Source of the DNA: Chloroflexota bacterium
GTDB taxonomy: Bacteria; Chloroflexota; Dehalococcoidia; DSTF01; JACRBR01
Reading direction: 5' to 3'
Length of the DNA stretch: 26,721 nt
NCBI GenBank assembly: GCA_037440665.1
Contig: JBBITS010000003.1
Coordinates: 1-26,721, forward strand
Both the position numbers and the translations under genes were made by a program. This document shows, piece after piece, positions 2,181 through 23,505 of this stretch. The notes beneath the pieces are model-generated. The model was not told the DNA's origin and searched no databases. It worked only from the letters and a program-made list of their open reading frames with translations. The stretch's first letter is position 1; each line of letters starts with the position of its first letter.

Positions 2181-2990
2181 TCAGCGTTCCGACAGGTACT
2201 GGCCGATGCGCTCGAGAATCTGGCGCGCCTCGTCCTCCGGCGCGCCGGTGATGAACTCGCGACGCCGCTCCCGCGAGGCCGACTGCCCGACGCCGCCGAC
2301 GATCGTCGCCGAACCCTTGACTCCAACCTCTTCGAGATCGACCCCCAGGTCCTCGGCCGACCACACGGTCACCAGGTCCTGACCCTCGGCCCACGGCCGC
2401 AGCGTCCAGTCGAGAAAGCGCGGCTCATTGACGCCCGTCTTGACCGAGACGACGGCCGGCAGGGGCGCCAGCAGCAGTTCGTGCCCACCCTTGATCTCCC
2501 GCCGCGCCCGCAGGCGGCGGTTCCAGTAGTCGACTTCGAGTTCGATCGCGTACGTCACCTGCGGCGTTCCCAGCCACTCGGCGATGCCGGGCGGCACTTG
2601 CGCCGTCGCTCCGTCCGACGACTCCTCGCCGCAGAGAACCAGCTCGTAGCGGCCGATCTTTTCGATGGCCGCGGCCAGCGTCCGCGACGTGCCGAGGGTG
2701 TCAGCGCCGCCGAAGGCGCGGTCGCTGAGCAGGAAGGCGCGATCGGCGCCCATGCAGAGCGCCAGCCGCAGGTAGCGTTCGAAGAACGGCGGCCCCATGG
2801 AAAGCACGCTGATGCTGCCACCGTGGGCCTGCTTTAACTGAAGCGCCATCTCCAGCGCGTTCATGTCGGGCGGATTGAAGATGGAGCGGGCATTGGCCCG
2901 GTCGAGCGTCATGGTCTCCTGGTTCACCCGCACTTCCTCAGGCATCGGGACGACCTTCATGCAGACGATGGTGTGCATCTCGCTCATCAC
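2181..2990 (-). CDS. etfB: Electron transfer flavoprotein beta subunit (EtfB/FixA)
   Basis: Motifs IVCMKVVP, NPPDMNALE, MGP, MGADRA, FGGADTLGTS, DGATAQVP, NEPR. The start may be GTG 2990, ATG 2987 or ATG 2978. Confidence 0.93.
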   Translation of the reverse strand: MMSEMHTIVCMKVVPMPEEVRVNQETMTLDRANARSIFNPPDMNALEMALQLKQAHGGSISVLSMGPPFFERYLRLALCMGADRAFLLSDRAFGGADTLGTSRTLAAAIEKIGRYELVLCGEESSDGATAQVPPGIAEWLGTPQVTYAIELEVDYWNRRLRARREIKGGHELLLAPLPAVVSVKTGVNEPRFLDWTLRPWAEGQDLVTVWSAEDLGVDLEEVGVKGSATIVGGVGQSASRERRREFITGAPEDEARQILERIGQYLSER

Positions 2991-4007
2991 TTAACCCGTC
3001 ACGGCTCGTGCCCCGGCGATCTGCTCCGCGAGGCAGGCGAGCACGGCGAACATGTCGTCTGTCACGCAGTAATCGGCGTGCTCGAAGATCGGCGCCTCCG
3101 GATCGGTGTTGATCGCCACGACGCATTCGGCCTTGTCGATGCCGACCGTGAAATGAATGGCGCCGCTGATCCCGCAGCAGATCACCAGCTTCGGCTGGGT
3201 GACCACACCCGTCTGCCCGATCTGCCGCGCGCGCGGAATCCATCCGAGGTCGGCCGCCACGCGCGTCCCGCCGATCTCGGCGTCCAGCAGGCCCGCCAGA
3301 CGCTGCGCCAGTTCGAGGTCGCCACGCGCGCCGCGCCCTACCGCGACGACTATCCCGGCGCGCGTCAGGTCTGGCTCCTCGGAAACGGAGCGCTCCAGCA
3401 CGTGGACGCGAAAGTCGGCCGCGTCAAGGCTCGCAGGCAGCGCCCGGATCTCGCCCTTTCGTTTCAGGTCCGGCTCGGGTTGCGCGAAGATGCCGGGCCG
3501 GACGGTCGCCATCTGCGGGCGATGTTCGGGGCAGAGGATCGTAGCTACGATGCCGCCGCCGAAGCCCACGACCTCGCCCGAAAGCAGACGCCGCTCCGGG
3601 TCGATGGTCAGGCCCGTGCAGTCGGCGGTCAGGCCGGTGCGCAGACGCACGGCCAGCCTGCCGGCCAGGTCGCGGCCGTTGGGCGTCGCGCCGAGAAGCA
3701 GCACGTCTGGCTTTCGCTCCAGCGCCAGGTGGTGAACGACAGAGGTGAAAGGCTCGGTCGTGTACACCTGAAGATCGGGATGCTCGACGACCAGCACCTC
3801 GTCTGCGCCGCACGCGACGGCCCGCGCAGGCGAGTCGCCGAGGGCGTAGCCCACCAGCAGCCCCGTCAGCGGGCAGTCCAGCGCGTCAGCCAGTTCCCGC
3901 CCTTTACCAAGCAGCTCCAGCGAGACGCTCTCGAGCTTCCCCTCTTCCTGCTCCAGGAACACCCAGACGCCGCGGGCGTCGGCCGGTCCGTACAGGCTGC
4001 TGGTCAT
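2991..4007 (-). CDS. etfA: Electron transfer flavoprotein alpha subunit (EtfA/FixB) with atypical flavin-contact residues
   Basis: Motifs GRDLAGRLA, GLTADCT, RPQMATVRPG, VAVGRG, QIGQTG, GISGA, AINTDPEAPIF. ATGA overlap with the upstream CCG-protein gene. Confidence 0.93.
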   Translation of the reverse strand: MTSSLYGPADARGVWVFLEQEEGKLESVSLELLGKGRELADALDCPLTGLLVGYALGDSPARAVACGADEVLVVEHPDLQVYTTEPFTSVVHHLALERKPDVLLLGATPNGRDLAGRLAVRLRTGLTADCTGLTIDPERRLLSGEVVGFGGGIVATILCPEHRPQMATVRPGIFAQPEPDLKRKGEIRALPASLDAADFRVHVLERSVSEEPDLTRAGIVVAVGRGARGDLELAQRLAGLLDAEIGGTRVAADLGWIPRARQIGQTGVVTQPKLVICCGISGAIHFTVGIDKAECVVAINTDPEAPIFEHADYCVTDDMFAVLACLAEQIAGARAVTG

Positions 4008-5338
4008 GACGCAACCCCCGCTTCAACCCGCGCCGGCTTGGCGAGCGCCCAGGCCAGTATCTCAGCGACGTCGGCGACCCGGATGCTGGCGTCGCCGGGG
4101 ATGCTGTCCTCGAGGCAGGAGACGCAGTGCGGGCACGCCGAACCGATGATTTCGGCGCCCGTCTCTCGCGCCTCGGCGACGCGCACGCTGGCGAAGCGTT
4201 CGTTGGCGGCGGTCTCCAGCCACATGCGGCCGCCGCCGCCGCCGCAGCACAGCGCCTCCTCGCGGTTGTGGCGCATCTCGAGCAGTTCCACGCCGGGGAT
4301 GCTCGCGAGCACTTCGCGCGGCGAGTCGTAGTCGCCGTTCTGCCGCCCCAAGTAGCACGGGTCGTGGAAGGTCACCTTCAGGGGCAGCTCGCCCTCGACG
4401 CGAAGGCGCCCGCTGGCGATCAGCTCACGCAGGTATTGCGTGTAGTGCAACGCCCTGAACTCCGGCGGCATGTCGAAGTGATGCAGGAACTGATCGAGGC
4501 AGTGTGGCGAGACGGTCACGACCGTTCTCACGCCCAGCTCCCGGAACAGCTTCGAGCCTTCGGCGGCGATGTCGTCGGCGTAGTCCGCGTGCCCGGCGTT
4601 GCGAACGGCGTCGCCGCAACAGGGTTCGCGATCCTTCAGCACGCCGAACTCGACGCCGGCGGCGCGAAGGACCTGTACGACGGCGCGCGCGATCTTCTGG
4701 ATGCGCGGGTCGTAGCTCGCCGTGCACCCGGCGTACAGCAGGACTTCCTGGTCACCCGAGAAATCCGGGAGGTCGAGCCCCTTCATCCAGTCCGAACGCT
4801 GCGATGGCGGCCGGCCGTAGGGATTGCCGTCCCAGTAGACATTCCAGAGCAGCGTAGGGAATCCCTGCGGCTCCTCGCGGTCGCGCCAGGCGAGGCCCCG
4901 GAGGGCCAGAATCACCTCGGGGATGTCCACCCCGCGCGGGCACAGCGCCTCGCAGCGCCCGCACGTCGTACACAACCACACAGCTTCCGGCCAGCCCGGA
5001 GCGCCCATCTGCGCCTCGCGCACCAGGCGGCGGATCAAAACGGGCTCCGACTTCACCTGCCCCCACGGGCAGATCGCCGTGCACACGCCGCACTGGAAGC
5101 ACTGCGCGGCCAGGCCTCGCGTCGCCACGACCACCCTCTCCCAAAGCGCGTCATCGAGCACCAGCACGTCGCCGTCGGGTTGAGAGATGCCCGGGATGGT
5201 CGCGAGGTCCATATCAAGCTTCCTCCTGCCGGCCCGCGTGTACGCGTCGCTGTCTTCCGGCATGGCCGCTTCCTCTCTTGCATCGAGCCACAGCTTCCTG
5301 CGGCCAGCGCGCGTGATGTCGCCATAGGCCGACGTCAT
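4004..5338 (-). CDS. HdrD/GlpC-like Fe-S oxidoreductase (two [4Fe-4S] motifs plus two CCG domains)
   Basis: CFQCGVCTAICP, CTTCGRCEALCP, YAGC...CCG...SPHC, FHDPCYLGR...CCGGGGG...ACPHC. Alternative start at ATG 5212 with an AGGAGG RBS. Confidence 0.9.
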   Translation of the reverse strand: MTSAYGDITRAGRRKLWLDAREEAAMPEDSDAYTRAGRRKLDMDLATIPGISQPDGDVLVLDDALWERVVVATRGLAAQCFQCGVCTAICPWGQVKSEPVLIRRLVREAQMGAPGWPEAVWLCTTCGRCEALCPRGVDIPEVILALRGLAWRDREEPQGFPTLLWNVYWDGNPYGRPPSQRSDWMKGLDLPDFSGDQEVLLYAGCTASYDPRIQKIARAVVQVLRAAGVEFGVLKDREPCCGDAVRNAGHADYADDIAAEGSKLFRELGVRTVVTVSPHCLDQFLHHFDMPPEFRALHYTQYLRELIASGRLRVEGELPLKVTFHDPCYLGRQNGDYDSPREVLASIPGVELLEMRHNREEALCCGGGGGRMWLETAANERFASVRVAEARETGAEIIGSACPHCVSCLEDSIPGDASIRVADVAEILAWALAKPARVEAGVAS

Positions 5339-5340
5339 GG

Positions 5341-8300
5341 CTACACCTTCTCCTCCACGAGATGGCCTTGCCGCCGCAGCACTTCGTCCATTTCGGCGAT
5401 CTTGCGGGCGAACTCTTTACCTTCGGACGCGGAGATCCACGCCAGTTGAAGCCGGTCAGGGTCCAGGCCTTCACGCGTCAGCTTGCGGTGCCACAGCTTG
5501 AACCGCTTGTCGGTCTGAGCGTTCGCGAAGTTGTAGTGGCAGTCCGAGCCGGTGGGCGTCAGCCGGCAGCCCGTGACCAGCACCGCGCCCGCGCCCTTCT
5601 TGAAGGCGTGCATGATGAAGTCCTCTTCCACGCGCGCTGAGCACATGGTGCGGATGATGAGGGCCGACGGCGGGTACTGGATCTTCTCCACGCCCGCCTG
5701 GTCGGCGCCCGCATACGAGCACCAGTTGCAGGCGAAGACGATGGTCTTCTTCTCGGGCTCGCGGGCGAGAGCGGCGTCGATCTGCGCCAGTATCTGCTCC
5801 TTGGTGAAGTACGGCATCTCGATGGCGTCGTAGTTGCACGCAGCCGCGCAGGCGCCGCAGCCCTGGCACGCGGCCTCGATGAACTTCATTTCGCCTTCCT
5901 TCACCTTACCGATGAGTTCGATGGCGCCGAACGGACACGCCTGCACGCAGATGCCGCAGACGATGCACTTGTCCTCGATGAGCCGGGAAGTGATGGGTTC
6001 CTTCTCGATGGTGTCCTGAGCCAGCAGATGCCCGGCCTTGGCGGCGGCGGCCAGCGCCTGCGCCACCGTCTCGCGCACGTCCTTGGGCGCCTGGACGGTT
6101 CCGGCCAGAAAGATGCCCGGCGAGCCCGCCTCGGCAGGGCCCAGTTTCGGGTGACGCTCCAGCAGGAAGCCGTCCTCGCTGTGGGCCACCTTGAGCTGGG
6201 CTGAGATGTCTTCGTCCTGAGGCGTCAGGCCGACGGTGAGAACCAGCGTGTCCGTCGGCGCCTGCAGCGTGCGGTCGCTGAGGTGATCGAGGAACTGGAC
6301 GGCGTGGCCGTCCCACGAGACCGAGGCTTCGGGCGCGCTGTCGGGATCGATGCGGAAGAACTGGACGCCCTTGCGGCCCGCCTCATCGTACAGCTCCTCG
6401 GCGTTGCGGCTGAAGGTGCGTATGTCTCGGTAGAGTACACGCACCTGCTTGCCCTGCTCGCGCAGGCGCAGCGCCTGCCCGATCATCGATTCGCAGCAGT
6501 AGCGCGAGCACCCGGAGCCGTTGCGCCGCGAGCCCACGCAGCCGATGAACGTCACGCGCTCTCCGCGCACCGGATGGCCGCGCTCGATGTCCAGGTTTGT
6601 GACGACGCGCGGATCGTCGCCGTAGCCGAACTCGACGGGCTCGTACGGGCGAGCGCCCATGGCCAGCACGACGGCCCCGGCCCGTATCTCGGCGCCGTCG
6701 GTGAGCCGCGCCGTGAAATTGCCGATGTGACCGCCGATGGTTTCGATCTCCGCGCCAAGGTGCACGGCCACGCCCGCCTCCTGCAACTCGCGCGCCTTCA
6801 CTTCAACGAACTCGCGCGCGGGAATGCCCGCCGGGGCGATCTCGTCGAGGTCGTTGAGCGTGCCGCCGAGGCGGTGCGTTCGCTCCACGAGGTGCGTCTC
6901 GTAACCCTGCGCCGCCAGGTTTGCGGCCGCCGACATGCCGGCGATGCCGCCGCCGATGACCAGCGCCTGCTGCACCATAGGCTGGTGGCTGATCTCCAGC
7001 GGCGCCAGCCGCCGCGCCTTCTCGACGCTCATCCGCACCATGTCGATGGCCTTTTGCGTGGCCTCCTCCTTCGTCTGCTTGTGCACCCAGGAGTCCTGAT
7101 TGCGCAGGTTCGCCATCTCGAGGAGGTACGGGTTCAGGCCCGCTTTGAGCATCACCCGTCTGAAGGTGGCCTCGTGCGTCTTGGGCGAGCACGCGGCGAT
7201 GACGATGCGGTTCGCCCGCGCCTCGCGTAGACGGCGCGCGATCTCGGCCTGCGTCGTGCCCGCGCACGAGAACATCGAGGAGTCGGCGTAGACCACGCCC
7301 TCCATCTGTCGCGCGGCCTCGACCACCGACTCGATGTCGACTACGCCCGCTATGTTGCTCCCGCAGTGACAGATGTTGACCCCGATTCGCACGGTCTCGA
7401 TGTCGTCCTGGGGCTCTCCGGCTTCGGGCTCCGGCCACGTGCGTTCGTCCAGATGGGTCAGCGCCCAGGCCGCTGCCGCGCCCGCTTCGGCGACGCTGTC
7501 GGGGATATCCTTCAGGCCTATCGCGCATCCTGCCGCGTAGACGCCGGAGCGCGTCGTCGCCGAAAGACCGCCCATGCGTTCGCGGCTCTTCACGAACCCG
7601 TCCGTATCGATATCGAAGCCCATCACCCCAGCGAGCCCTTCGAGGCCCGCTGGCGGCCTGGCAGCCGTGGCCAGCACCACCATGTCCACCTCTGCGGTCT
7701 GGACGCGGCCGGCGTCGGTGTCCTCATACCGGACGCTGATCCGATCGCCTGCGGGTTCGACGGAGGCGGGCCGCCCTCTGATGAACCGAGCCCCTTCGTC
7801 ACGCGTGCGCTGGTAGAAGGCATCGAAGCCCTTGCCGTAGGCGCGCATGTCCATGTAGAGCACAGTGACGTCGCCGACACCGTGATCCCGCGCCTGGAAC
7901 GCTTGCTTCACCGAGTACATGCAGCAGAAGCGCGAGCAGTGGCGGTAGAAGCGCACGTCGCGCGAGCCAACGCAGAGGACGAACAGGATGCTCTCTGGGT
8001 GCTGGCCGTTGGACGGCTTCACGATCTCGCCGCCGGTGGGGCCCGCCGAAGTCAGCAGGCGCTCGAACTCCATCGATGTCAGCACGTCGGGGTGGGCGCC
8101 GTACCCGAACCCGCGCAGGAGCGCCGGGTCGATGAGGTCGAAGCCCGTCGCGACGATGGCCGAACCGACCGTGCGCTCGACGACGCGCTCGCGCGGCTGC
8201 ATGAAGTCGATGACCTTCGGCAGGCAGGCCTCCATGCAGCGGCCGCAGGGCAGGTAGTTGGGCGGATCGTTCAGGCAGTGCTCCAGGTCGATGATATACG

Positions 8301-8727
8301 CGCCGGGCACTGCCTGCGGGAACGGCGTGTAGATGGCCTTGCGGGAGGCCATCGCCACGTCGAACTCGTTGGGCAGGACGACGGGGCAGGCCTCGACGCA
8401 GAGGTTGCAGCGCGTGCAGTCGTCCTCGACAAACCGCGACTTGTGGCGGATGCGCACGCGGAAGTCGCCGGGCTCGCCTTCGAAGCCGACGACCTCGGCC
8501 GGCGACAGAATCTCGATGTTGGGGTGCTCGCTGACCTCGGACAGCTTCGGAGCCTCGATGCAGATGGAGCAGTCGAGGGTGGGGAAGTTCTTGTCCAGGC
8601 CCGCCATCTTGCCGCCGATGGCCGGGCTGGCCTCGACCAGAACCACGCGGGCGCCCGATTCGGCGAGGTCCAGCGCCGCCTGCACCCCGGCGATGCCACC
8701 GCCCACGACCAGCACGGAATCGCTCAC
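5341..8727 (-). CDS. hdrA: Tandem HdrA-HdrA-MvhD fusion flavoprotein (heterodisulfide reductase subunit A family), 1128 aa
   Basis: Two GGGIAG FAD domains; DKNFPTLDCSIC; inserted ferredoxin; CVGSR...CSRxCC twice; internal CHCGSNIAG domain; C-terminal ferredoxin with two [4Fe-4S] motifs; MvhD motifs ACNWCSY, MCSARV, GC...DCHY. Confidence 0.92.
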   Translation of the reverse strand: MSDSVLVVGGGIAGVQAALDLAESGARVVLVEASPAIGGKMAGLDKNFPTLDCSICIEAPKLSEVSEHPNIEILSPAEVVGFEGEPGDFRVRIRHKSRFVEDDCTRCNLCVEACPVVLPNEFDVAMASRKAIYTPFPQAVPGAYIIDLEHCLNDPPNYLPCGRCMEACLPKVIDFMQPRERVVERTVGSAIVATGFDLIDPALLRGFGYGAHPDVLTSMEFERLLTSAGPTGGEIVKPSNGQHPESILFVLCVGSRDVRFYRHCSRFCCMYSVKQAFQARDHGVGDVTVLYMDMRAYGKGFDAFYQRTRDEGARFIRGRPASVEPAGDRISVRYEDTDAGRVQTAEVDMVVLATAARPPAGLEGLAGVMGFDIDTDGFVKSRERMGGLSATTRSGVYAAGCAIGLKDIPDSVAEAGAAAAWALTHLDERTWPEPEAGEPQDDIETVRIGVNICHCGSNIAGVVDIESVVEAARQMEGVVYADSSMFSCAGTTQAEIARRLREARANRIVIAACSPKTHEATFRRVMLKAGLNPYLLEMANLRNQDSWVHKQTKEEATQKAIDMVRMSVEKARRLAPLEISHQPMVQQALVIGGGIAGMSAAANLAAQGYETHLVERTHRLGGTLNDLDEIAPAGIPAREFVEVKARELQEAGVAVHLGAEIETIGGHIGNFTARLTDGAEIRAGAVVLAMGARPYEPVEFGYGDDPRVVTNLDIERGHPVRGERVTFIGCVGSRRNGSGCSRYCCESMIGQALRLREQGKQVRVLYRDIRTFSRNAEELYDEAGRKGVQFFRIDPDSAPEASVSWDGHAVQFLDHLSDRTLQAPTDTLVLTVGLTPQDEDISAQLKVAHSEDGFLLERHPKLGPAEAGSPGIFLAGTVQAPKDVRETVAQALAAAAKAGHLLAQDTIEKEPITSRLIEDKCIVCGICVQACPFGAIELIGKVKEGEMKFIEAACQGCGACAAACNYDAIEMPYFTKEQILAQIDAALAREPEKKTIVFACNWCSYAGADQAGVEKIQYPPSALIIRTMCSARVEEDFIMHAFKKGAGAVLVTGCRLTPTGSDCHYNFANAQTDKRFKLWHRKLTREGLDPDRLQLAWISASEGKEFARKIAEMDEVLRRQGHLVEEKV

Positions 8728-8730
8728 GGC

Positions 8731-9270
8731 CTACGCCTCCTGACCCGCGTGCGTGTACCCCGCATCGAAGGCCTCCATGTTCAGCGCCACGAAGCGCTCC
8801 CGCACCGACGACCGGATGGCTTCCTCCATCGCCGGGCGGCTGACAGCCTGCGTGACCGCCGTGAAGAACCCCAGCATCACCACGTTGGCCGCCATGCGGT
8901 TCCCCAGGCGTTCGGCGATCGCCGTCGCCGGGATTTTGTGAATGGGCCAGCCCAGACCAGCGGGCAGCTCCACCAAGGTTTCGTCGACGAGCACTTGGCA
9001 GTTCTCGGCGAGGTCGGAGACGTACTTGTGAGCGGCCTCCTGCGACATCACCACGAGGACGTCCGGTTGGCTGACCATCGGGTAGTCGATGGGCATGTCG
9101 TCCACCACGAGCTGCGCCGCGCAGGCGCCACCGCGCGCCTCCGGCCCGTACGACTGCGTCACCACCGCCTCCTTGCCGTCGTGCAACGCCGCCGCCCGGC
9201 CCGTGATCAGCCCCGCCAGGATGATTCCCTGGCCACCGAAGCCGGCGAAGCGGATCTCCCGGCGGCTCAT
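8731..9270 (-). CDS. korC: 2-oxoacid:ferredoxin oxidoreductase gamma subunit (KorC/OorC-like)
   Basis: MSRREIRFAGFGGQG, QSYGPEARGG, ANVVMLG. True start is ATG 9270 (ATGA overlap with the beta gene), inside the longer track ORF 8731..10017. Confidence 0.92.
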   Translation of the reverse strand: MSRREIRFAGFGGQGIILAGLITGRAAALHDGKEAVVTQSYGPEARGGACAAQLVVDDMPIDYPMVSQPDVLVVMSQEAAHKYVSDLAENCQVLVDETLVELPAGLGWPIHKIPATAIAERLGNRMAANVVMLGFFTAVTQAVSRPAMEEAIRSSVRERFVALNMEAFDAGYTHAGQEA

Positions 9271-10094
9271 CCGTCTTCCTCCCACTCGCCGTACGGCGTC
9301 CGTTCGATGTCGATGAAGTTGCCCAGAATCAGCGGCTTGTGCGACCGCAGGTCGATGCCGCAGTCCTTCAGGTCGGCGGTGTCGTCGACGACGCACTCGA
9401 GCTTGTAGAGCTGCATCTCGTCGAGGCCCTCGCCGAGGTCGTTGGGGCGGCCAAAGCCGATGGGGCACGGCGCCAGAACCTCGACGAACGTGAGGCCACG
9501 CTTCTGGAACACGCGCTGGATGGCCTCCTCGAGCTGACGGACGTGCAGCGCCGACCAGCGGGCGACGAACACCGCCCCCAGCGACGCCATCAGGTGCACC
9601 AGGTTCAGGGCGTCTTCGGGGTTGCCGTAGGGCGTCGTCGACGTGATGGCGCCCCTGGGCGTCGTCGGACCGAGCTGCCCACCCGTCATGCCATAGTTGA
9701 AGTTGTTCACGCAGATGATGTTCAGGTCGATGTTGCGGCGGGCGGCGTGCAGGATGTGGTTCCCGCCGATGGCGAAGAGATCGCCGTCGCCGCTGATGAC
9801 GGTGACCTCCAGCTCCGGGTTCCCGAGCTTCAGGCCCGTGGCGAACGGTATCGCGCGCCCGTGCGTCGTGTGGAAGGAATCGATGTTCACGTAGCCGGGG
9901 ACGCGGCCCGTGCAGCCGATGCCCGACACGATGACGTGCTTGTCGGCCGGTATCGCCGACTGGACCATCGCCTGCACGTAGCAATTCGTTATCGGGCCAA
10001 GACCGCAGCCAGGACACCAGATGTGAGGCAGCCTCTCAGACCGGAGATACTGGTCGACCGGATGCACTTCGACGATCTGCTCAGCTCGCGCCAT
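9267..10094 (-). CDS. korB: 2-oxoacid:ferredoxin oxidoreductase beta subunit (TPP-binding)
   Basis: WCPGCG, SGIGC, HTTHGRA, GDGD...NN TPP motif, YGMTGGQ..PTT, final PCP. Confidence 0.93.
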   Translation of the reverse strand: MARAEQIVEVHPVDQYLRSERLPHIWCPGCGLGPITNCYVQAMVQSAIPADKHVIVSGIGCTGRVPGYVNIDSFHTTHGRAIPFATGLKLGNPELEVTVISGDGDLFAIGGNHILHAARRNIDLNIICVNNFNYGMTGGQLGPTTPRGAITSTTPYGNPEDALNLVHLMASLGAVFVARWSALHVRQLEEAIQRVFQKRGLTFVEVLAPCPIGFGRPNDLGEGLDEMQLYKLECVVDDTADLKDCGIDLRSHKPLILGNFIDIERTPYGEWEEDG

Positions 10095-11250
10095 CGCGCG
10101 CCTCCTTGATCGCCCTGACGATGCGCTCCGGGCGAAGCATCTCGCCGCCGCCGTGGTGCACGCCGAGCACGCGCTTCGACGAAAACCGTTGCACCTGCGT
10201 CGCCACCTGGCCGAGGTTCAGCTCGGCCACGACGAAGGCCTTCACGCGCTCCGACGTGTGCGACATCTGGGCCCCGGCGAAGGGCCACAGCGTGATCAGA
10301 CGCAGCAGGCCCGCCTTCAGCCCCTGCGCCCTCGCGACGTTGACGGCGTGCCGCGCCGAACGCGCGCTCGATCCGAACGAGACGACGCACACCTCGGCGT
10401 CGTCCAGCAGGTACTCCTCCCACTCCACGATGCGCTCCGCGTTGCGGATGATCTTGTCCGACAGCCGGCGCACGAGGCGGTCGTGCACGTCGGCGCTGGT
10501 CACCGGGTAGCCGCGCTCGTCGTGCGTCAGGCCCGTCATGTGGATGCGATAGCCCTCGCCGGCCAGAGGCATCGGCGGGACCAGGCTGCCGTCTACCGCC
10601 TGATAGATCAGCCCCTTGCCCGGCGGGAACGACGGCTTCGGACGCCCGGCGCGCTCGATCGCCTCCGCGGCCGGGATGATGACGCGCTCCGTCATGTGGC
10701 CCACGACCTCGTCGGAGAGGACGAACACGGGCTGCCGGTAGGCGTCGGCGGCGTTGAACGCCTTGATGGTGAGGTCGAACATCTCCTGGGGCGAGGCGGG
10801 AGCGTAGGCGATGGGCTCGTAGTCGCCGTGCGAGCCCCACTTCGCCTGCATCACGTCGGCCTGGCCGGCCAACGTCGGCAGGCCCGTCGAGGGTCCGCCC
10901 CGCTGCACGTTCACGACGACGCACGGCGTCTCGGTGATGAACGCCAGGCCCAGGTTCTCTTGCATCAGCGTGAAGCCGGGGCCGGACGTCGCCGTCATCG
11001 CCCGGCGTCCCGCCCACGACGCGCCCAGGATGCAGTTCATGCTCGCCAGCTCGTCCTCCATCTGGATGTAGTGGCCGCCCGTCCGGGGCAGGCGTTGGGC
11101 CATGCGCTCGGCGATTTCGGTAGACGGAGTGATCGGGTAGCCGGCGAAGAAGTCGCAGCCGGCGGCCAGCGCGCCCTCGGCGCAGGCGATGTCGCCGTTC
11201 ATGAAGTGCTGGCCCGTGAGCACCGTGGGCGCCGTTGCGACAGACGTCAC
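10081..11250 (-). CDS. korA: 2-oxoacid:ferredoxin oxidoreductase alpha subunit
   Basis: GYPITPSTE, QMEDELA, ATSGPG, QRGGPSTGLPT..QAD; single-domain 389-aa alpha typical of four-subunit OorDABC/KorDABC enzymes. Confidence 0.93.
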   Translation of the reverse strand: MTSVATAPTVLTGQHFMNGDIACAEGALAAGCDFFAGYPITPSTEIAERMAQRLPRTGGHYIQMEDELASMNCILGASWAGRRAMTATSGPGFTLMQENLGLAFITETPCVVVNVQRGGPSTGLPTLAGQADVMQAKWGSHGDYEPIAYAPASPQEMFDLTIKAFNAADAYRQPVFVLSDEVVGHMTERVIIPAAEAIERAGRPKPSFPPGKGLIYQAVDGSLVPPMPLAGEGYRIHMTGLTHDERGYPVTSADVHDRLVRRLSDKIIRNAERIVEWEEYLLDDAEVCVVSFGSSARSARHAVNVARAQGLKAGLLRLITLWPFAGAQMSHTSERVKAFVVAELNLGQVATQVQRFSSKRVLGVHHGGGEMLRPERIVRAIKEARDGAS

Positions 11251-11525
11251 GGGCCGCCTCCCACGTTCTCGGTGAAGATGGCGAACTCGGGGCAGATGAC
11301 CTGACAGAAGCCGCAGTTGACGCAGGCTTCCTCTTTGCCCGCGCTGACGACGGGGTAGTGGTAGCCCTTGACGTTCATGCCCTGTGACTCCTCGAGGACG
11401 TCCTCGGGGCAGAACTCGATGCAGAACTTGCAGCCCTTGCAGCGGTCAGGGATTGTGTAGACCTGTCCGCGCGGCAGAACCTGCCGTCCGAGGTCGAGAG
11501 GGCGGCGGACGAACGCGGCCACCAT
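11247..11525 (-). CDS. korD: Ferredoxin-like delta subunit (two [4Fe-4S]) of the 2-oxoacid oxidoreductase
   Basis: CKGCKFCIEFCP and CVNCGFCQVICP; GTGA overlap with the alpha gene. Start at ATG 11525 preferred over 11561 but uncertain. Confidence 0.88.
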   Translation of the reverse strand: MVAAFVRRPLDLGRQVLPRGQVYTIPDRCKGCKFCIEFCPEDVLEESQGMNVKGYHYPVVSAGKEEACVNCGFCQVICPEFAIFTENVGGGP

Positions 11526-11742
11526 GGCTGCAACCGCCTTACCGGCCCGCCGCGGGAACACGAGCCACCGCTATAGCCCTGCCGGATGGCAGGTACCAGC
11601 GACTCCCGGCAGACGCACCAGGGCGTCTTAAGGTTCTGAGACCATGCTGTATCGGCGGGGTAGCTTCAGAAAAGGGCCGAACGTACCAGAGCGAACCATA
11701 TCCATTAGCTGGCAGCCCTGTGGGGGAGTTACCCGGGGGCGC

Positions 11743-17124: not shown

Positions 17125-20100
17125 ATGGCGAGACCTACCACGTCTGCGGCAGACGCCGGACCAGACGGCTGGCGTGGGGATGGGGGCCTGCTTCGCATTG
17201 TGGTGGCGGGTGCCCTGCTCTTCTTCGCCCTGTACGCCGCCGGCATCATCATCCGTCCGGGAGAGCTGTTCCTACGAGTCCAGAGCAGCGTCATCTACAA
17301 CGTCCCGGCGCTGGCGGGGCTCGCGCTGGCCGTGCGCGCCATCCGCCACAGCAGCGGACGCGAGCGGGTGGGTTGGGCCTGCCTCGCCATCGTGCTCGCC
17401 GTGTGGGGCGTGGCCGAGTGGAGCTACGCCTACTACGACTTCGTCCTTGGCGCCGAAGTGCCCTTCCCTGGGTGGCCAGACGCGTTCTACTACGCCGGCT
17501 ACCTCGCCTACATACCGGCCATCCCCCTGCTCACGTTCCCGGAAAAGCGGCTGAAGGACCGCCGCTGGGTCATCGACGTCGCGACGGTGATGGTCGTGTG
17601 CGGAACCGTGATCTGGCACTACGTCGTGCATCCGGTAGCCGCAGCCGAAGGCTATAGCTCCTTTAGCGCCATGGTGGCGCTTGGTTATCTGCTTCTCGAT
17701 TTCGGCCTTCTGACGGCGCTGGTGGTGACGTTGTACGCGTCGGGCGGCCACTTCTCGCTGCGCTCGCGCGTCCTCTTGATGGCCACCCTGGCTCTGGTAC
17801 TCGCCGATTCGGCGTACACGTACGCCGTGAACACCACCGGATATGACATGTCGGGCAGCCCCATGGACCTGGGGTGGGTCGCCAACTATCTCCTCATAGC
17901 GGTGGCGTTCGTCCTTCCGCCCGAAGAGGAGAAAGAGGTCACGCCCTCGAAACAATCCCTTGCCGGGCTTGCTATCCCCTACTTCGGCGTGGCGCCCCTG
18001 GCGGCCGTAGTCCTCATGGAAGAGGCCCGGACCGGCAACTTCACAGCCGTGTTGCTGGGCGCCGCTCTCGCGGTAGGCCTGGTCATCATCCGCCAGCTTC
18101 TGACCCTTGCTGACAACCTGGCCCTCTACAGGCGCCTTGAAGAGCAGAGCCAATCGCGTCTCGCTCTGCTGGAGGCCCAGAGCGAACTCGGCGAGATCTT
18201 CATTGCGCTCGAGGGGCGTCGTATTACCTACGCTAATGGCGCGGCTTGCCAGGTCAGCGGCTACACGGCCGAGGAGTTGCACGCCCTCGACTCAGTCGTG
18301 AGCCTCGTCGCCCCTGATGTGCGCGACACCTTCAGGGAGAGCGCACGGGCGATCCTCAACGACTCGCTCCTCGTCAGGTCGTTCGAGACCGTGATCGCGC
18401 GGAAGGACGGTGAGCGCGTTCACGTGGAAGTAACCGTGAAGGCCATCCCGTCCGTAGGCGTGCGCAGGCTGGTGGTCATCGGACGGGACGTAACGGAAAG
18501 GAAGCGGACGGAGCAGGCGCTGGCGCGGCAGACGGCGTTGGTGCGCTTGGTGCAGGAAGCATCCTTGGCCGCCAACGAAGCCGCTTCGGTCGAAGAGGCG
18601 TTCCAGATGACGATCGATCTGGTCTGCGCGCACACCGGCTGGCCGGTCGGCCACGTGTACGTTCCTGCCGAGGACGGGACGGGCGAGCTTGCGCCCACAG
18701 ACATCTGGCGTCTGGACGACCCGGATCGCTTCGCCGCGTTCAGACAGGCAACGGAGGCGACGCGCCTCGCCTCCGGGATCGTCCTGCCCGGGCGCGTGCA
18801 CGCCACACGGAAGCCGGCGTGGATCGTAGACATCGCAAAGGACGGCAACTTCCCCCGTGCCCGTCACGCCAGCGACATCGGCGTGCGTGGAGCCTTCGCC
18901 TTCCCCGTTCTGGTGGGAACGGAGGTCGCCGCCGTTCTCGAGTTCTTCATGCCGGAGCCCGCCGAGCCCGACATCGATCTCCTAGAGTCAGTGGCCCACA
19001 TCGGCAGGCAGATTGGCCGCGTCGTCGAACGGGAGCGGGCACGAGAGACCATCCGGCGCAGCGAGGAGCGCTACCGCGACTTATTCGAGAACGCCAACGA
19101 CATCGTGTACACGCACGATCTGAGTGGCCGCTTTACGTCAGTGAACAAAGCCGGTCTACAGGCCACGGGGTACACGCTGGAAGAAGCGCTGCAAGAGAAC
19201 ATGGCTCACATTCTCTCACCGGAGCACTTCGAACAGGCCCGCGAGATGGTCCTGCGCAAGCTTCGCGGCGAGCCGACTACCGCGCACGAACTGGAGATTC
19301 TCACGAAGGACGGCCGCCGCATACCGGTCGAGGTTCGAACTCGCCTCCTCTACGAGAACGGGCGCCCGATTGGCGTGCAAGGCATCGCTCGCGACATCAC
19401 CGAGCGCAAGGAAGCCGAGGAGGCGCTGCGCCACGCCAACGAACGGCTCCGCGCCCTGGTGGAATCCTCCCCTCTCGCCGTGATCTCGCTCGATCTCGAC
19501 CTCATCGTGCAGTCTTGGAACTCCGCGGCTGAGACCATGTTCGGCTGGACGGCCGGGGAGATCGTCGGGCACCCCTACCCGCTCGTGCCGCCGGACCGCC
19601 AGGAGGAGTTCCAGTCGCTCTTCTCGAAAGTCGTCCACGGGGAGGCGATCTCGGCGTTCGAGACGAAGCGCGCCCGCAAGGATGGTTCTGTGACCGACGT
19701 GAGCATCGCCGTCGCCCCCCTGCGAGACCGCAATGAAGAGGTCACCGGCATCATCACCGTCATAGCCGACGTCACCGCGCGCAAGCAGGCCGAGAACGCG
19801 CTCCGCGAGAGCGAGGAGCGCCTGCGGTCCGTGGTCGCGAACGCCCCGGTGATGCTGTTCGCCATCGACAGCCAGGGCGTCTTCACCCTGGCCGAAGGGA
19901 AAGGCATGGCAGGCGTCGGCCTCGCGCCGCGCGACTTGGTCGGGCGCTCCGCCTTCCACCTCTTCAGGGCCTTCCCTGACGTCACAGCAAACATTCCCCG
20001 CGCTCTGGCCGGCGAGACGTTCGACGCCATCGTGGACGCCGGAAACGTCGTGTTCGATGTCCATTACGGACCGGTCCGCGACGCTTCCGGCGCCGTCGCC

Positions 20101-21834
20101 GGCGTCATCGGCGTGGCGGTGGACATCACAGAGCGCAGGCGCGCCGAGGAGACGCGCGCGCGGCTGGCAACTATCCTCGAGGCGACGCCGGACTTCGTGG
20201 GCACCATCGACGCCGAGGGACGCGTGCTGTACCTGAACAGCGCCGGCCGGGCCATGCTGGGCATCGGCCCTGACCAGGACATATCACAACAGGACGGGCT
20301 TTCTATCCACCCCGATTGGGCCCGCGTGCTGCTCGAAAAGGAAGGCATACCCGCCGCCAGCCGGGACGGCGTGTGGCACGGCGAAACCGCCATCGTCAGT
20401 CCCGAGGGGGGCGAGATACCAGTATCACAGGTGATCGTCGCGCACAAGCAGACCGATGGCTCGGTCAGCTTCCTGTCGACCATCGCCCGGGACATCAGTG
20501 AGCGAAAGCTCTTCGAGGATCAGTTGATACACGCCGCCAGCCACGATCCCTTGACCGGTGTGTTCAACCGCCGTCGCCTCGAGGAAGACCTGGAGCGCGA
20601 GATGGCGCACCTCCGGCGCTACGGCGGCTCTGGCGCGCTGATGTTCCTCGACCTAGACGACTTCAAGGCCGTGAACGACAGCCTCGGCCACCGCGTCGGG
20701 GACGAGATGCTCACGAGCGTCGCTCAGGTCCTGCGCGAGCGCCTGCGGGAAACCGACGTACTGGCGCGTCTGGGCGGCGACGAGTTCGCCATCCTCATGA
20801 CACGGGCCACCGCCCGCGAGGCGAAGACGGCCGCGCGCGGCATCCTACAGACGCTCCGCCAGCACACAGTCCTCGTCGAGGGACGGCCCTTGAGCACCAC
20901 GGCCAGCATCGGCATCGCCCTCATGCCGGAGCACGGGCAGACTGTCGACGAACTCCTGGCTCACGCCGACCTCGCCATGTACGAGGCCAAGGAACACGGT
21001 CGCAACAGCGTGGTCGTCTACGATCCGAAGCGAAACCGCCAGTCGATGACCGAGTCGCGTCTCGACTGGAAGCGCCGCATAGCCGAGGCGCTGGAACGCG
21101 ACCTGTTCCACCTCTACTGCCAGCCCATCTTCGACCTGAAGTCCGGAACCGTCGCTAAGTACGAACTGCTGCTGCGCATGCCGGGAGAGAATGGCGAGGT
21201 CATTCTGCCCGGCGCGTTCCTCGACACGGCCGAGCGATTCGGACTGATCCAGGACATCGACCGCTGGGTCGTGCGCCAGGCCATCAGCCTCATCGCGGAG
21301 CAGCGACGCATCGGCCGCGACCTGCGCGTGGCCGTGAACGTCTCCGGCAAGGCCATCGCTGACGCTGAGCTGTTGCGGATGATCCGCCGCGACCTGGCGG
21401 CCAGCGGCGTCAACCCGGCCAGCCTCACGCTGGAGATCACGGAAAGCGTCGCCATCGCCGACATGACGCAGGCGCAGAAGTTCGTCAACAGCCTCAAGTC
21501 CACGGGTTGCCAGTTCGCGCTCGACGACTTCGGTGTAGGCTTCTCATCCTTCTACCACCTGAAGAGCCTGCCGGTGGACGAGCTGAAGATCGACGGCAGC
21601 TTCATCCGCTATCTGACGCGCGACCCCGTTGACCAGCATCTGGTCAAGGCCATCGTCGAGGTCGCCGAAGGCCTGGGCCGCGCCACCATAGCCGAGTTCG
21701 TGGGCGACGATGACACGGTGCGCCTCCTCAAGGACCTCGGCGTCGGCTTCGGCCAGGGATTCCACCTCGGCCGGCCAGTCCCCGTCGCGACCGTCCTGGA
21801 CGACGCAGGCCAGGCTACCGGGCGCGCCGCCTGA
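17125..21834 (+). CDS. Membrane-anchored diguanylate cyclase/phosphodiesterase (multi-TM sensor, PAS, GAF, four PAS, GGDEF, EAL)
   Basis: About 300-aa multi-TM N-terminus; repeated D(I/V)(T/S)xR(K/R) PAS ends; SHDPLTG; DLDDFK.VND; RETD I-site; GGDEF; YELLLR; VNVS; DDFGVGFSS; KID. Confidence 0.93.
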   Translation: MARPTTSAADAGPDGWRGDGGLLRIVVAGALLFFALYAAGIIIRPGELFLRVQSSVIYNVPALAGLALAVRAIRHSSGRERVGWACLAIVLAVWGVAEWSYAYYDFVLGAEVPFPGWPDAFYYAGYLAYIPAIPLLTFPEKRLKDRRWVIDVATVMVVCGTVIWHYVVHPVAAAEGYSSFSAMVALGYLLLDFGLLTALVVTLYASGGHFSLRSRVLLMATLALVLADSAYTYAVNTTGYDMSGSPMDLGWVANYLLIAVAFVLPPEEEKEVTPSKQSLAGLAIPYFGVAPLAAVVLMEEARTGNFTAVLLGAALAVGLVIIRQLLTLADNLALYRRLEEQSQSRLALLEAQSELGEIFIALEGRRITYANGAACQVSGYTAEELHALDSVVSLVAPDVRDTFRESARAILNDSLLVRSFETVIARKDGERVHVEVTVKAIPSVGVRRLVVIGRDVTERKRTEQALARQTALVRLVQEASLAANEAASVEEAFQMTIDLVCAHTGWPVGHVYVPAEDGTGELAPTDIWRLDDPDRFAAFRQATEATRLASGIVLPGRVHATRKPAWIVDIAKDGNFPRARHASDIGVRGAFAFPVLVGTEVAAVLEFFMPEPAEPDIDLLESVAHIGRQIGRVVERERARETIRRSEERYRDLFENANDIVYTHDLSGRFTSVNKAGLQATGYTLEEALQENMAHILSPEHFEQAREMVLRKLRGEPTTAHELEILTKDGRRIPVEVRTRLLYENGRPIGVQGIARDITERKEAEEALRHANERLRALVESSPLAVISLDLDLIVQSWNSAAETMFGWTAGEIVGHPYPLVPPDRQEEFQSLFSKVVHGEAISAFETKRARKDGSVTDVSIAVAPLRDRNEEVTGIITVIADVTARKQAENALRESEERLRSVVANAPVMLFAIDSQGVFTLAEGKGMAGVGLAPRDLVGRSAFHLFRAFPDVTANIPRALAGETFDAIVDAGNVVFDVHYGPVRDASGAVAGVIGVAVDITERRRAEETRARLATILEATPDFVGTIDAEGRVLYLNSAGRAMLGIGPDQDISQQDGLSIHPDWARVLLEKEGIPAASRDGVWHGETAIVSPEGGEIPVSQVIVAHKQTDGSVSFLSTIARDISERKLFEDQLIHAASHDPLTGVFNRRRLEEDLEREMAHLRRYGGSGALMFLDLDDFKAVNDSLGHRVGDEMLTSVAQVLRERLRETDVLARLGGDEFAILMTRATAREAKTAARGILQTLRQHTVLVEGRPLSTTASIGIALMPEHGQTVDELLAHADLAMYEAKEHGRNSVVVYDPKRNRQSMTESRLDWKRRIAEALERDLFHLYCQPIFDLKSGTVAKYELLLRMPGENGEVILPGAFLDTAERFGLIQDIDRWVVRQAISLIAEQRRIGRDLRVAVNVSGKAIADAELLRMIRRDLAASGVNPASLTLEITESVAIADMTQAQKFVNSLKSTGCQFALDDFGVGFSSFYHLKSLPVDELKIDGSFIRYLTRDPVDQHLVKAIVEVAEGLGRATIAEFVGDDDTVRLLKDLGVGFGQGFHLGRPVPVATVLDDAGQATGRAA

Positions 21835-22614: not shown

Positions 22615-23505
22615 GTGAAACGATTCGACTACGCCGCGCCCGCTTCCCTGCGGGAAGCCATCGACACGCTGCGCCAACGCGCGGACGGCGTGCGGCTGCT
22701 CGCGGGCGGCACCGACCTCCTTCCACAGATCAAGGAGGGCGGTCTCTGGCCCTCCCACGTAGTGAGCCTGCGCCGAGTACCCGAGCTGCGCGGCATCTCA
22801 TTCGATCCCTCGACGGGCCTGCGCGTCGGCGCGGCCGAGCTGCTCTCCGACGTCGCCGCTCACGAGGTAGTGAGCCGCCACTACCAGGCGCTGGCTGAAG
22901 GCGCGGGCATCGTCGGCTCCGTGCAGACCCGGAACATGGGAACCATAGGCGGCAACGTCTGCAACGCCGCGCCCTCGGCCGACACGGCCCCGCCCCTGCT
23001 CGTCTTCGACGCCGCGGTGGTCATCGCCAGCCGAGACGGCGAGCGGCAGCTCCCTCTGAGCGAGTTCTTCCTCGGTCCCGGCCGCACAGCTCTGGCGCCG
23101 GGCGAGATCGCCGTCGCGCTGGAGCTGCCGCCGCCAGCCGAACGCTCGGGCAGCGTCTACCAGCGCCACACGCCGAGGAAGATCATGGACATCGCCGTCG
23201 TGGGCGTCGCCTGCCGCCTCGTACTCGCCCCGGACGAGAGCATGGCCGAGGCGCGCATCGCCCTCGGCGCCGTCGCGCCCACATCCATACGCTGCCCGGA
23301 TGCCGAGGCGCTGCTGCAGGGCCGCGCGCCTTCAGTCGCACTATTCGAGCAGGCCGCAGATGCAGCGCGCGAGGCCAGCAGCCCCATCACCGACGTACGC
23401 GGCTCGGCGGAATTCCGGCGCGAACTCGTGCGCGTCATGACGGCGCGATGCCTCGCAATCGCTGCTGAGCGCGCGCGTCTCTTGAGCGAGAGGACTTGCA
23501 GGTGA
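22615..23505 (+). CDS. Xanthine/CO dehydrogenase family FAD-binding medium subunit (CoxM-like)
   Basis: LLAGGTDL, QTRNMGTIGGN, SADTAP, DVRGSAEFR. Confidence 0.92.
   Translation: MKRFDYAAPASLREAIDTLRQRADGVRLLAGGTDLLPQIKEGGLWPSHVVSLRRVPELRGISFDPSTGLRVGAAELLSDVAAHEVVSRHYQALAEGAGIVGSVQTRNMGTIGGNVCNAAPSADTAPPLLVFDAAVVIASRDGERQLPLSEFFLGPGRTALAPGEIAVALELPPPAERSGSVYQRHTPRKIMDIAVVGVACRLVLAPDESMAEARIALGAVAPTSIRCPDAEALLQGRAPSVALFEQAADAAREASSPITDVRGSAEFRRELVRVMTARCLAIAAERARLLSERTCR

Follow-up and report, generated by a model that had tools for sequence, protein, structure and literature searches.

The window analysed here, a 26,721-nt stretch of contig JBBITS010000003.1 (GCA_037440665.1; positions follow forward-strand numbering; G+C content ~67%), represents contig C3 of an 84%-complete, 2.5-Mb metagenome-assembled genome (MAG) of a Chloroflexota bacterium from a subsurface metagenome. 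By kinship this genome falls in the small-genome class of Chloroflexota, and a DNA run from that metagenome is the only sequencing run in which the sequence occurs. The minus strand of the window carries, at 11561-2181, a block of eight genes encoding the four subunits of a 2-oxoacid:ferredoxin oxidoreductase (OFOR; KorD-A-B-C), an HdrA-HdrA-MvhD fusion flavoprotein, a protein with two CCG domains (hereafter the CCG protein) and both subunits of an electron-transferring flavoprotein (ETF; EtfA and EtfB). The block is conserved across phyla and in an archaeon, and its products may constitute one soluble system of flavin-based electron bi/confurcation. Gene identities, assigned by Pfam and NCBIfam profile searches of the window's open reading frames (ORFs), are as follows.

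11561 (GTG) or 11525 (ATG) to 11247, minus strand: korD, OFOR delta subunit, 2x[4Fe-4S] ferredoxin-like (Pfam Fer4 families, two 4Fe-4S motifs)
11250-10081, minus strand: korA, OFOR alpha subunit (POR_N E 1.5e-68, and PFOR_II; NF006412 554 bits against a cut-off of 411)
10094-9267, minus strand: korB, OFOR beta subunit, binding thiamine pyrophosphate (TPP) (TPP_enzyme_C E 1.1e-32; best solved chain 8YS5_C, E 3e-63)
9270-8731, minus strand: korC, OFOR gamma subunit (POR E 3.5e-35)
8727-5341, minus strand: HdrA-HdrA-MvhD fusion, 1128 aa (FlpD E 6.5e-40)
5338-4004, minus strand: soluble BamD/EtfD-like CCG protein, 444 aa (CCG E 5.8e-34; two CCG domains and two CxxCxxCxxxCP motifs)
4007-2991, minus strand: etfA, ETF large subunit (ETF and ETF_alpha; best solved chains 5OL2_A, 6FAH_A, 7KOE_B)
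2990-2181, minus strand: etfB, ETF small subunit (ETF E 6.6e-41; best solved chains 6FAH_B, 5OL2_B, 7KOE_A, 4KPU_B, 7QH2_B)

The seven successive junctions, in gene order, measure -4, -14, -4, +3, +2, -4 and 0 nt, and GGAGG-like Shine-Dalgarno sites precede most of the starts. A preliminary description of the locus had listed eight co-oriented genes with this domain content, all of which are indeed present on the minus strand, but its figure of 0-3 nt for overlaps and gaps was slightly off, given that overlaps extend to 14 nt. It had also noted the lack of MvhAG, Fdh, HdrB, Flx, FixCX, an acyl-CoA dehydrogenase and a membrane subunit in the operon, and none of these was found inside the eight-gene block. 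Similarly, no convincing transmembrane segment was predicted in any of the eight proteins, which contain only weak hydrophobic stretches in Rossmann or cluster regions. Two gene limits deserve comment. KorD matches the NCBIfam OGOR_delta model with E 1.5e-16, under the cut-off of that model, and its orthologues align to residues ~17-100 only, the conserved part beginning near the ATG at 11525; because the orthologues cover only residues from ~17 on, this internal ATG is probably the real KorD start. The true start of KorC is the ATG at 9270, which overlaps the korB stop codon (ATGA).

The centre of the block is the fusion flavoprotein, the domains of which were delimited by alignment to Methanothermococcus HdrA (5ODC_A).

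8727-7438, minus strand: TrxR1, thioredoxin-reductase-like half with an inserted 2x[4Fe-4S] ferredoxin domain, aa 1-430 (aa 4-370 correspond to HdrA 145-509)
7398-7003, minus strand: equivalent of the HdrA N-terminal domain, aa 444-575, with one 4-Cys cluster (Cys453, 455, 488, 513; Cys invariant; aa 444-611 correspond to HdrA 2-169)
7002-5983, minus strand: TrxR2, second thioredoxin-reductase-like half, with no inserted ferredoxin domain, aa 576-915 (internal repeat against TrxR1, E 2e-20)
5982-5773, minus strand: C-terminal 2x[4Fe-4S] ferredoxin domain, aa 916-985 (Fer4_21 and Fer4_7 at 918-971; aligned to HdrA 568-648)
5760-5341, minus strand: fused MvhD [2Fe-2S] domain, aa 990-1128 and stop (FlpD E 6.5e-40; 9SW2_D and 5ODC_D, E 1e-31 to 1e-32)

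Residues 822-985, comprising the end of TrxR2 and the C-terminal ferredoxin domain, correspond to HdrA 483-648, and the stretch aligned to MvhD spans aa 990-1121; this is the sole MvhD domain in the MAG. TrxR1 contains a flavin-adjacent CxxC (Cys53/Cys56), Glu222 and Lys274, which together mark the predicted bifurcating FAD site; Glu222 and Lys274 align with Glu356 and Lys409, the key bifurcation residues of HdrA (PMC12054007). TrxR2 has Gly750-Gln751 at the position of the Lys, is without the CxxC, and contains a cluster set formed by Cys 730, 740, 744 and 745. The TrxR1 residues and all seven 4-Cys sets are invariant in 16-17 sequences, including paralogues of 38-41% identity, as are four of the five MvhD cysteines, the fifth (Cys1003) being nearly so. 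Gln751 is invariant in the 17 orthologues of one alignment and is not among the invariant residues of the 16-sequence alignment. An AlphaFold model of the fusion, based on 16 sequences, is of good overall confidence, with a mean pLDDT of 79.9 and a pTM of 0.82. Colinear fused HdrAs of ~1000 aa form a very large family, with 2446 matches at E <= 1e-30 in an exhaustive search of representatives.

Judging from this anatomy, derived from sequence alignment, the flavoprotein belongs to type II of the HdrA classification in PMC12054007, with an added MvhD, and is a fused pseudo-dimer resembling BamE of class II benzoyl-CoA reductase, rather than HdrA2 (type Ia), as which it had been labelled in the preliminary description. 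It comprises two thioredoxin-reductase-like domains and has no HdrB2C2, and it exceeds the cut-off of the HdrA2 model NF040770 (1124 against 1100 bits) only as the sum of three stretches of a duplicated protein. It likewise departs from the homodimer of single HdrA chains accompanied by HdrB and HdrC, being one chain with two halves and without separate HdrB or HdrC genes.

The closest precedent for the core of the block is class II benzoyl-CoA reductase. According to cryo-EM work on the enzyme of Geobacter metallireducens, Bam[(BC)2DEFGHI]2 (bioRxiv 10.64898/2026.04.10.717634), BamE is a fused HdrA dimer whose first half holds a bifurcating FAD (Lys280, Cys59-Cys62) and whose second half holds an FAD that does not bifurcate (Gln768). 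BamF serves as the MvhD adaptor at the input, and the low-potential electron reaches BamBC by way of the ferredoxin domain inserted in BamE. BamD is described as HdrD-like, with a blocked heterodisulfide pocket and a Cys-to-Ser change that converts the distal non-cubane cluster, and as the docking site of ETF, the high-potential acceptor. KGOR is a separate, ferredoxin-regenerating enzyme (same source). The window shares with this BamDEF-ETF core the fused HdrA pseudo-dimer, bifurcation features in the first half only, seven [4Fe-4S] clusters, an MvhD-type adaptor, a CCG protein with the distal Cys-to-Ser change and an ETF as the putative partner of the CCG protein. It differs from the benzoyl-CoA reductase in that BamB (a tungsten aldehyde:ferredoxin oxidoreductase, AOR), BamC and BamGHI are found neither in the window nor at any orthologous locus, a linked OFOR (KorDABC) being present instead; furthermore, its MvhD is short and fused to HdrA, selenocysteine is absent, and the ETF genes lie inside the operon.

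This kinship was measured on metagenomic BamD- and BamE-like proteins, the G. metallireducens proteins being compared by published residue numbers; the numbers are close (Lys274, Gln751 and Cys53/56 in the window against Lys280, Gln768 and Cys59/62 in BamE). A metagenome scan with an alignment of CCG proteins recovered many clusters in the bamBCDEF order, starting with an AOR and a small protein and continuing with a CCG protein, a type II HdrA and, last, a long MvhD. Contigs with this order (L073:6342-14014, and also L068, L070, L083, L088, L089, L092, L093, L104 and L108) encode the nearest non-orthologous relatives of the HdrA and CCG proteins of the window. Their BamE-like proteins are 38-42% identical to, and colinear with, the fusion and share with it the motifs FPTxDCSxC and CCxYxxK; in the protein from L073, the CxxC and the Lys occur at the published Geobacter numbers +16. 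The TrxR2 position varies among the metagenomic BamE-like proteins (Lys or Thr), and for this reason we do not claim Gln751 as a general BamE feature. Our literature search retrieved no description of a complex or gene set with the make-up of the whole block, in agreement with the preliminary description, which knew of no characterised complex of this composition; that statement nevertheless does not extend to the HdrA/MvhD/CCG/ETF sub-core, which does have a characterised counterpart. Thus, only the union of the sub-core with an OFOR appears to be undescribed, the core itself being a variant of a system characterised in 2026.

The CCG protein carries two cubane motifs within Cys80-133, a full non-cubane (proximal) site composed of Cys328, 364, 365, 402 and 405 together with His279, and an altered distal site (Cys205, 240, 241 and 280, with Ser277). 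Its first CCG domain ends in S-P-H-C instead of C-x-x-C, a feature shared without exception by all 13 orthologues and the archaeal copy, whereas the second domain is complete; the two complete motifs, each ending in CxxC, that define canonical HdrB or HdrD are therefore not present. The protein is 39-41% identical to the BamD-like proteins of the bamBCDEF-type clusters, seven of which display the same S-S-P-H-C. Its best solved relative is EtfD of Mycobacterium smegmatis (9OJN_A, E 3.8e-52), a membrane ETF:menaquinone oxidoreductase with a linear [3Fe-4S] cluster and a non-cubane [4Fe-4S] cluster in its CCG domains (9OJN; PMC13083937). Both proteins have two cubane motifs, two CCG domains and an x-P-H-C His that ligates the non-cubane cluster, and the redox partner of EtfD is ETF. 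However, EtfD also has five transmembrane helices, haem b in an N-terminal transmembrane domain and the C-T-G and C-P-H-C motifs of the linear [3Fe-4S] cluster, whereas the window protein is soluble, with no predicted hydrophobic segment, and has C-C-G and S-P-H-C. Because of the BamD-like Cys-to-Ser change and of EtfD being the best solved relative, the CCG protein would seem to act as an ETF adaptor rather than as a disulfide reductase, and to belong, without a membrane part, to those CCG proteins that have ETF as their partner.

The preliminary description had assigned this protein a different role, namely that of the terminal high-potential catalytic site for a thiol/disulfide or similar small substrate, with ETF as NAD(H) or second-electron port. 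In its strict form, ETF would be no more than the NAD(H) port feeding HdrA. This version can draw on the two CCG domains with one full non-cubane site intact, on the well-formed thermodynamics of NADH feeding an OFOR and a disulfide, and on the affinity of the ETF, which is closer to solved two-FAD than to AMP-type ETFs: alignment scores of EtfA and EtfB with solved bifurcating ETFs are roughly double those with the AMP type, and EtfB reaches 133-165 bits with the five solved bifurcating ETFs compared with 47-75 bits with the listed non-bifurcating ones. We nonetheless consider it very unlikely, since an invariant Ser (Ser277) replaces a Cys of the distal site, much as in BamD, where ETF binds and the heterodisulfide pocket is reportedly blocked, since the closest solved relative is an ETF oxidase, and since soluble CCG genes adjoin ETF genes in several other cluster types. 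Taken alone, the idea of ETF as an NAD(H) port is a possible one. None of the adjacent flavin dehydrogenase partners of bifurcating ETFs (Bcd, CarC, LctD, FixCX) is encoded in the operon or in conserved flanks.

The OFOR subunits make up the complete set of the four-subunit Kor/Oor type, with alpha (POR_N and PFOR_II), beta (TPP), gamma (POR) and delta (2x[4Fe-4S]) subunits. The solved chains nearest to KorA are 1YD7, 8YS5 (2-oxoglutarate synthase) and 6N2N, which are of the Kor/OGOR type and not PFOR, and among the NCBIfam OFOR models only the generic alpha model exceeds its cut-off, the 2-oxoglutarate-specific models remaining below theirs. By these matches, the enzyme is assigned to the Kor/OGOR side of the family. 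It resembles the four-subunit 2-oxoglutarate OFORs (8YS5, 1YD7, 6N2N; OorDABC/KorABGD) in its delta-alpha-beta-gamma set, and differs from OorDABC/KorABGD in that its genes are embedded in an Hdr/ETF operon.

The HdrA fusion was scanned against one genome per GTDB species, yielding 52 loci, which were then searched by tblastn with all eight proteins. Gene set and order are identical at every locus with sufficient flanking sequence and an HdrA 53-82% identical to that of the window, whereas the block is absent from loci with HdrA relatives of 35-44% identity. The carriers belong to five or more phyla and include Chloroflexota (among them Dehalococcoidia and Tepidiformaceae), Methylomirabilota/Rokubacteria, Elusimicrobia, Coatesbacteria and a Thermoplasmata archaeon (L021). 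Further copies are found in genome G068 (locus L060), the only one in a sample of 300 genomes of the phylum, and on the metagenome contigs L066 and L069, and relatives of the CCG protein at 53-74% identity fill more than 120 clusters. Of 8000 candidates scored against the archaeal orthologue of the fusion, 7918 match at E <= 1e-100. The members of both sets come from uncultured Dehalococcoidia, Rokubacteria, NC10, Thermoplasmata, Nitrososphaerota, Aigarchaeota and Armatimonadota, and all bear generic labels such as "(Fe-S)-binding protein", "hydrogenase iron-sulfur subunit" and "heterodisulfide reductase subunit A". The best 120 named homologues of this archaeal orthologue carried MAG names only.

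Clustering of all flanking ORFs revealed no additional family common to more than three or four loci, and no donor module, acyl-CoA dehydrogenase or AOR; the MMPL transporter upstream of korD is not kept at related loci either. Because no further neighbour is conserved across loci, the eight genes behave as a self-contained, laterally mobile block. The arrangement is far beyond chance, and its retention in different phyla and in both domains argues for a single functional unit. The gene-neighbourhood survey proposed in the preliminary description thus came out in favour of a conserved order, across phyla and in an archaeon alike. A side observation concerns the Rokubacteria/Methylomirabilota copies, in which an ORF for a class-I S-adenosylmethionine (SAM)-dependent methyltransferase lies between korB and korC (L007:6447-6872, plus strand; Methyltransf_31/11, E 1e-26); a korB-korC gap of ~1 kb likewise occurs in L017 and L034.

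These data bear on the possibility that there is no single complex, and that the OFOR only supplies or consumes free reduced ferredoxin next to a separate, ferredoxin-linked HdrA/MvhD-CCG-ETF complex serving an unlinked enzyme, such as one of the three AOR-family proteins of the host. KGOR works in just this way for benzoyl-CoA reductase, the type II HdrA-MvhD-CCG triad is found with other partners and, in many contexts, without an OFOR, and the three AOR-family genes (tungsten/molybdenum enzymes; contigs C5, C175 and C119) do lie elsewhere in the genome, which also encodes a haem-copper oxidase. Yet the order and translational coupling of all eight genes are kept across phyla and domains, no AOR or BamC gene is linked at any orthologous locus, and the association of OFOR with HdrA recurs in two further, more distant cluster types, so that we regard loose coupling of this kind as improbable. 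The first of these types, L056 (6069-17085), combines KorDABC, a type II HdrA, a separate MvhD, a 333-aa CCG protein, a second HdrA/MvhD and an HdrD-like protein whose first CCG domain ends in S-P-H-T, with no ETF. The second, represented in Chloroflexia MAGs by L030 (9800-19355), L031 and L047, joins an HdrA with a GltD-like NAD(P)H module to an iron-sulfur protein and KorDABC-like genes, and is a second, independent OFOR-HdrA type. It corresponds to HdrL or type III HdrA, the GltD-inserted form known from Desulfobacterium autotrophicum (PMC2702500; PMC12054007); the window fusion, in contrast, is without the GltD insert, and these loci are without ETF.

Other known HdrA and ETF systems match the window in part. 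The methanogen complexes MvhAGD-HdrABC and Fdh-Hdr-Fmd (5ODC, 7BKB, 8RVU) have the same HdrA domains, the same flavin surroundings (Lys409, Glu356, CxxC) and MvhD, and provide a precedent for direct channelling of low-potential electrons into a CO2-fixing enzyme; they are, however, built on a homodimer of single HdrA chains as opposed to the one fused chain of the window, they reduce CoM-S-S-CoB at two full non-cubane clusters in HdrB and HdrC, they receive electrons from a hydrogenase or formate dehydrogenase, and they include neither ETF nor OFOR. HdrA2B2C2 of Methanosarcina acetivorans (NF040770) likewise has a C-terminal MvhD fusion, but its HdrA2 has one thioredoxin-reductase-like domain and works with HdrB2C2 and F420H2, and none of those partners is found in the window. 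The bifurcating ETF complexes (Bcd-EtfAB 5OL2, CarCDE 6FAH, LctBCD 7QH2, FixABCX 7KOE) give the top EtfA and EtfB scores and follow the low/NADH/high energetic logic that we propose here; their partners Bcd, CarC, LctD and FixCX are absent from the window, where the presumed partner is an iron-sulfur CCG protein.

Two additional combinations turned up in the course of these comparisons. At L057 (9001-15857), a fusion of type II HdrA and MvhD is encoded directly upstream of FrhB-like, GXGXG and Glu_synthase genes, which suggests a putative HdrA-linked glutamate synthase of the archaeal type. L125 (5585-16674) encodes an AOR, a saccharopine-dehydrogenase-like protein, a 331-aa CCG protein, EtfB, EtfA, a 353-aa HdrA-like flavoprotein, FdhD, a ferredoxin and an ADP-forming acyl-CoA synthetase, and is, by predicted gene content, another ETF-CCG-HdrA-like combination.

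The host genome supplies further context. Besides the operon's own, it holds three OFOR alpha genes, four in all, and a second ETF pair. Neither a [NiFe]-hydrogenase nor SucA was found in the MAG, the incompleteness of which leaves their absence unproven. Contig C23 (L054:2321-4417) encodes a 698-aa EtfD-like protein with at least four predicted transmembrane helices and the C-T-G/C-P-H-C motifs, 36% identical to the CCG protein of the operon. Since it has the linear-[3Fe-4S] motif as in mycobacterial EtfD, the host probably possesses a respiratory ETF outlet besides the soluble paralogue in the operon.

By analogy with the systems described above, we tentatively favour, though with somewhat less than even confidence, a three-couple bi/confurcating complex in which the OFOR would form the low-potential branch, ETF the high-potential branch and NAD(H) probably the middle couple. 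The eight proteins would then constitute one soluble system around the BamE-like pseudo-dimeric HdrA, a hub with three ports: an input through the C-terminal ferredoxin domain and MvhD, a high-potential exit from the TrxR1 cluster to the CCG protein and a low-potential exit through the inserted ferredoxin domain. On the model of EtfD and class II benzoyl-CoA reductase, the electron of high potential would pass from the TrxR1 cluster through the CCG protein to the alpha-FAD of the dedicated ETF, and reduced ETF would be re-oxidised by ETF partners of the host, whose genome encodes the EtfD-like membrane protein and the haem-copper oxidase. The OFOR would be hard-wired via KorD to the inserted ferredoxin domain, taking the place of BamBC or of formylmethanofuran dehydrogenase. 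The couples involved would lie at ~-500 mV (2-oxoacid/acyl-CoA+CO2), ~0 mV (ETF) and -250 to -300 mV (middle couple, most likely NAD(H)), with potentials taken from PMC5861303; NAD(H) is proposed for the middle position because ~-500 and ~0 mV average to a value typical of NAD(H), a logic that also applies to Bcd-EtfAB or FixABCX. In the forward direction, NADH would drive reductive carboxylation, the second electron being dumped on ETF and quinone, and in reverse the oxidation of the 2-oxoacid would pull the uphill re-oxidation of reduced ETF, with formation of NADH. A true triad of low, middle and high couples is favoured because the bifurcation residues are strictly conserved, and the GltD-like NAD(P)H module in the HdrA of L030, L031 and L047 fits a triad of OFOR, NAD(P)H and a third partner. 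Both the direction and the NAD(H) site we infer only. Of the overall reading in the preliminary description, a soluble complex coupling the OFOR through HdrA to ETF and the CCG protein, the composition, the tight linkage, the lack of a membrane subunit and the undescribed combination have been borne out, and the type of HdrA and the role of the CCG protein have had to be revised.

Several observations weigh against this three-couple scheme. It is weakest at the NAD(H) site: within the block, only the beta-flavin site of ETF is a candidate. The similarity of the ETF to bifurcating ETFs is also less telling than it seems: in a control EtfB encoded beside a membrane EtfD-like gene (L127), bifurcating ETFs rank first as well (119-161 against 79-100 bits), and so they do for the second EtfB of the host on contig C148 (103-160 against 73-120 bits), although the gap between bifurcating and non-bifurcating scores is larger for the operon EtfB than for both of these. 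Typing of the ETF by best match among the solved structures was dropped, as the L127 and C148 proteins show the same ranking. A complex prediction for EtfA, EtfB and residues 60-444 of the CCG protein scored 0.83 and a control 0.72, which speaks neither for nor against the complex. Lastly, MvhD together with the C-terminal ferredoxin domain is the classical input port for an iron-sulfur donor, where KorD could equally dock, and gene order alone does not determine the port of the OFOR.

In a rather unlikely competing reading, the OFOR is the donor, replacing Mvh, Fdh, Flx or BamGHI, and electrons would flow from KorD through the C-terminal ferredoxin domain and MvhD to the TrxR1 FAD, and from there both to ETF (via the CCG protein, and then on to EtfD and quinone) and to free ferredoxin or flavodoxin (via the inserted ferredoxin domain). 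Electrons enter all characterised HdrA machines from the variable iron-sulfur module that is attached through MvhD (the 5ODC and 7BKB families; BamGHI/BamF). The only extra partner needed would be ubiquitous ferredoxin, which fits a self-contained mobile block, and, with SucA not found in the 84%-complete MAG, the OFORs are probably oxidative in this aerobe. The energetics run the other way, because ferredoxin and ETF both lie downhill of a donor at ~-500 mV, which could reduce either without bifurcation; the split would be ~250 mV exergonic, or else would yield electrons far below ferredoxin for an acceptor not encoded in the block, and the strict conservation of the bifurcation residues again favours a true low/middle/high triad.

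Within the three-couple scheme, a more specific and doubtful proposal is that the operon encodes a reductive carboxylase that fixes CO2, a self-sufficient 2-oxoacid synthase driven by NADH, in which HdrA bifurcation, possibly stacked on a second bifurcating ETF flavin as in class II benzoyl-CoA reductase, would make the low-potential electrons within the complex and pass the rest to ETF and quinone. We also considered, and rejected, a combination of HdrA bifurcation with ETF confurcation in one complex that would deliver all electrons of the 2-oxoacid to NADH; the two steps cancel, and the arrangement would serve no energetic purpose.

HdrA-based bifurcation has so far been linked to methanogenesis, sulfur metabolism, acetogenesis and, recently, the reduction of aromatic rings. 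If the three-couple scheme holds, a 2-oxoacid:ferredoxin oxidoreductase of central metabolism would be a new hard-wired module of the HdrA machine, and where hydrogenases or Rnf are lacking, either reductive carboxylation could be powered in this way or electrons at the level of ETF and ferredoxin could be disposed of as NADH. It would also support the BamDEF-ETF core as a general, swappable bifurcation cassette. Should the NADH-driven synthase prove real, aerobic or microaerobic uncultured bacteria and archaea could run ferredoxin-type carboxylations without a free pool of low-potential ferredoxin. The operon is widespread, and the archaeal fusion orthologue alone has thousands of close metagenomic relatives, none of them functionally named. 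Whichever reading holds, the block offers a compact eight-gene target for expression and cryo-EM.

The surroundings of the block are unrelated to it. Downstream and convergent with it lie genes for an alcohol dehydrogenase and a MaoC dehydratase, and upstream of korD, on the same strand, the gene for the MMPL transporter, followed by ArsR, SDR, TreT, a PAS-GGDEF-EAL protein, Rpe and CoxM/CoxL-like genes. Scans around the block for a sigma-70-like promoter, a terminator and a Rex-like box gave nothing above chance; by position, the presumed promoter is the region immediately upstream of korD.

11562-11742, minus strand: intergenic region 5' of korD, presumed promoter (position upstream of korD)

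A signalling protein encoded at 17125-21834 (plus strand) has 1569 aa and comprises GAF, multiple PAS, GGDEF and EAL domains; a weaker relative is encoded near the operon in the closest Chloroflexota locus, L001. At 22615-26293 (plus strand), a CoxM-like (FAD_binding_5) and a CoxL-like (molybdopterin) gene of the xanthine/CO-dehydrogenase family follow, and in the large CoxL-like ORF ~127 residues precede the hammerhead domain.

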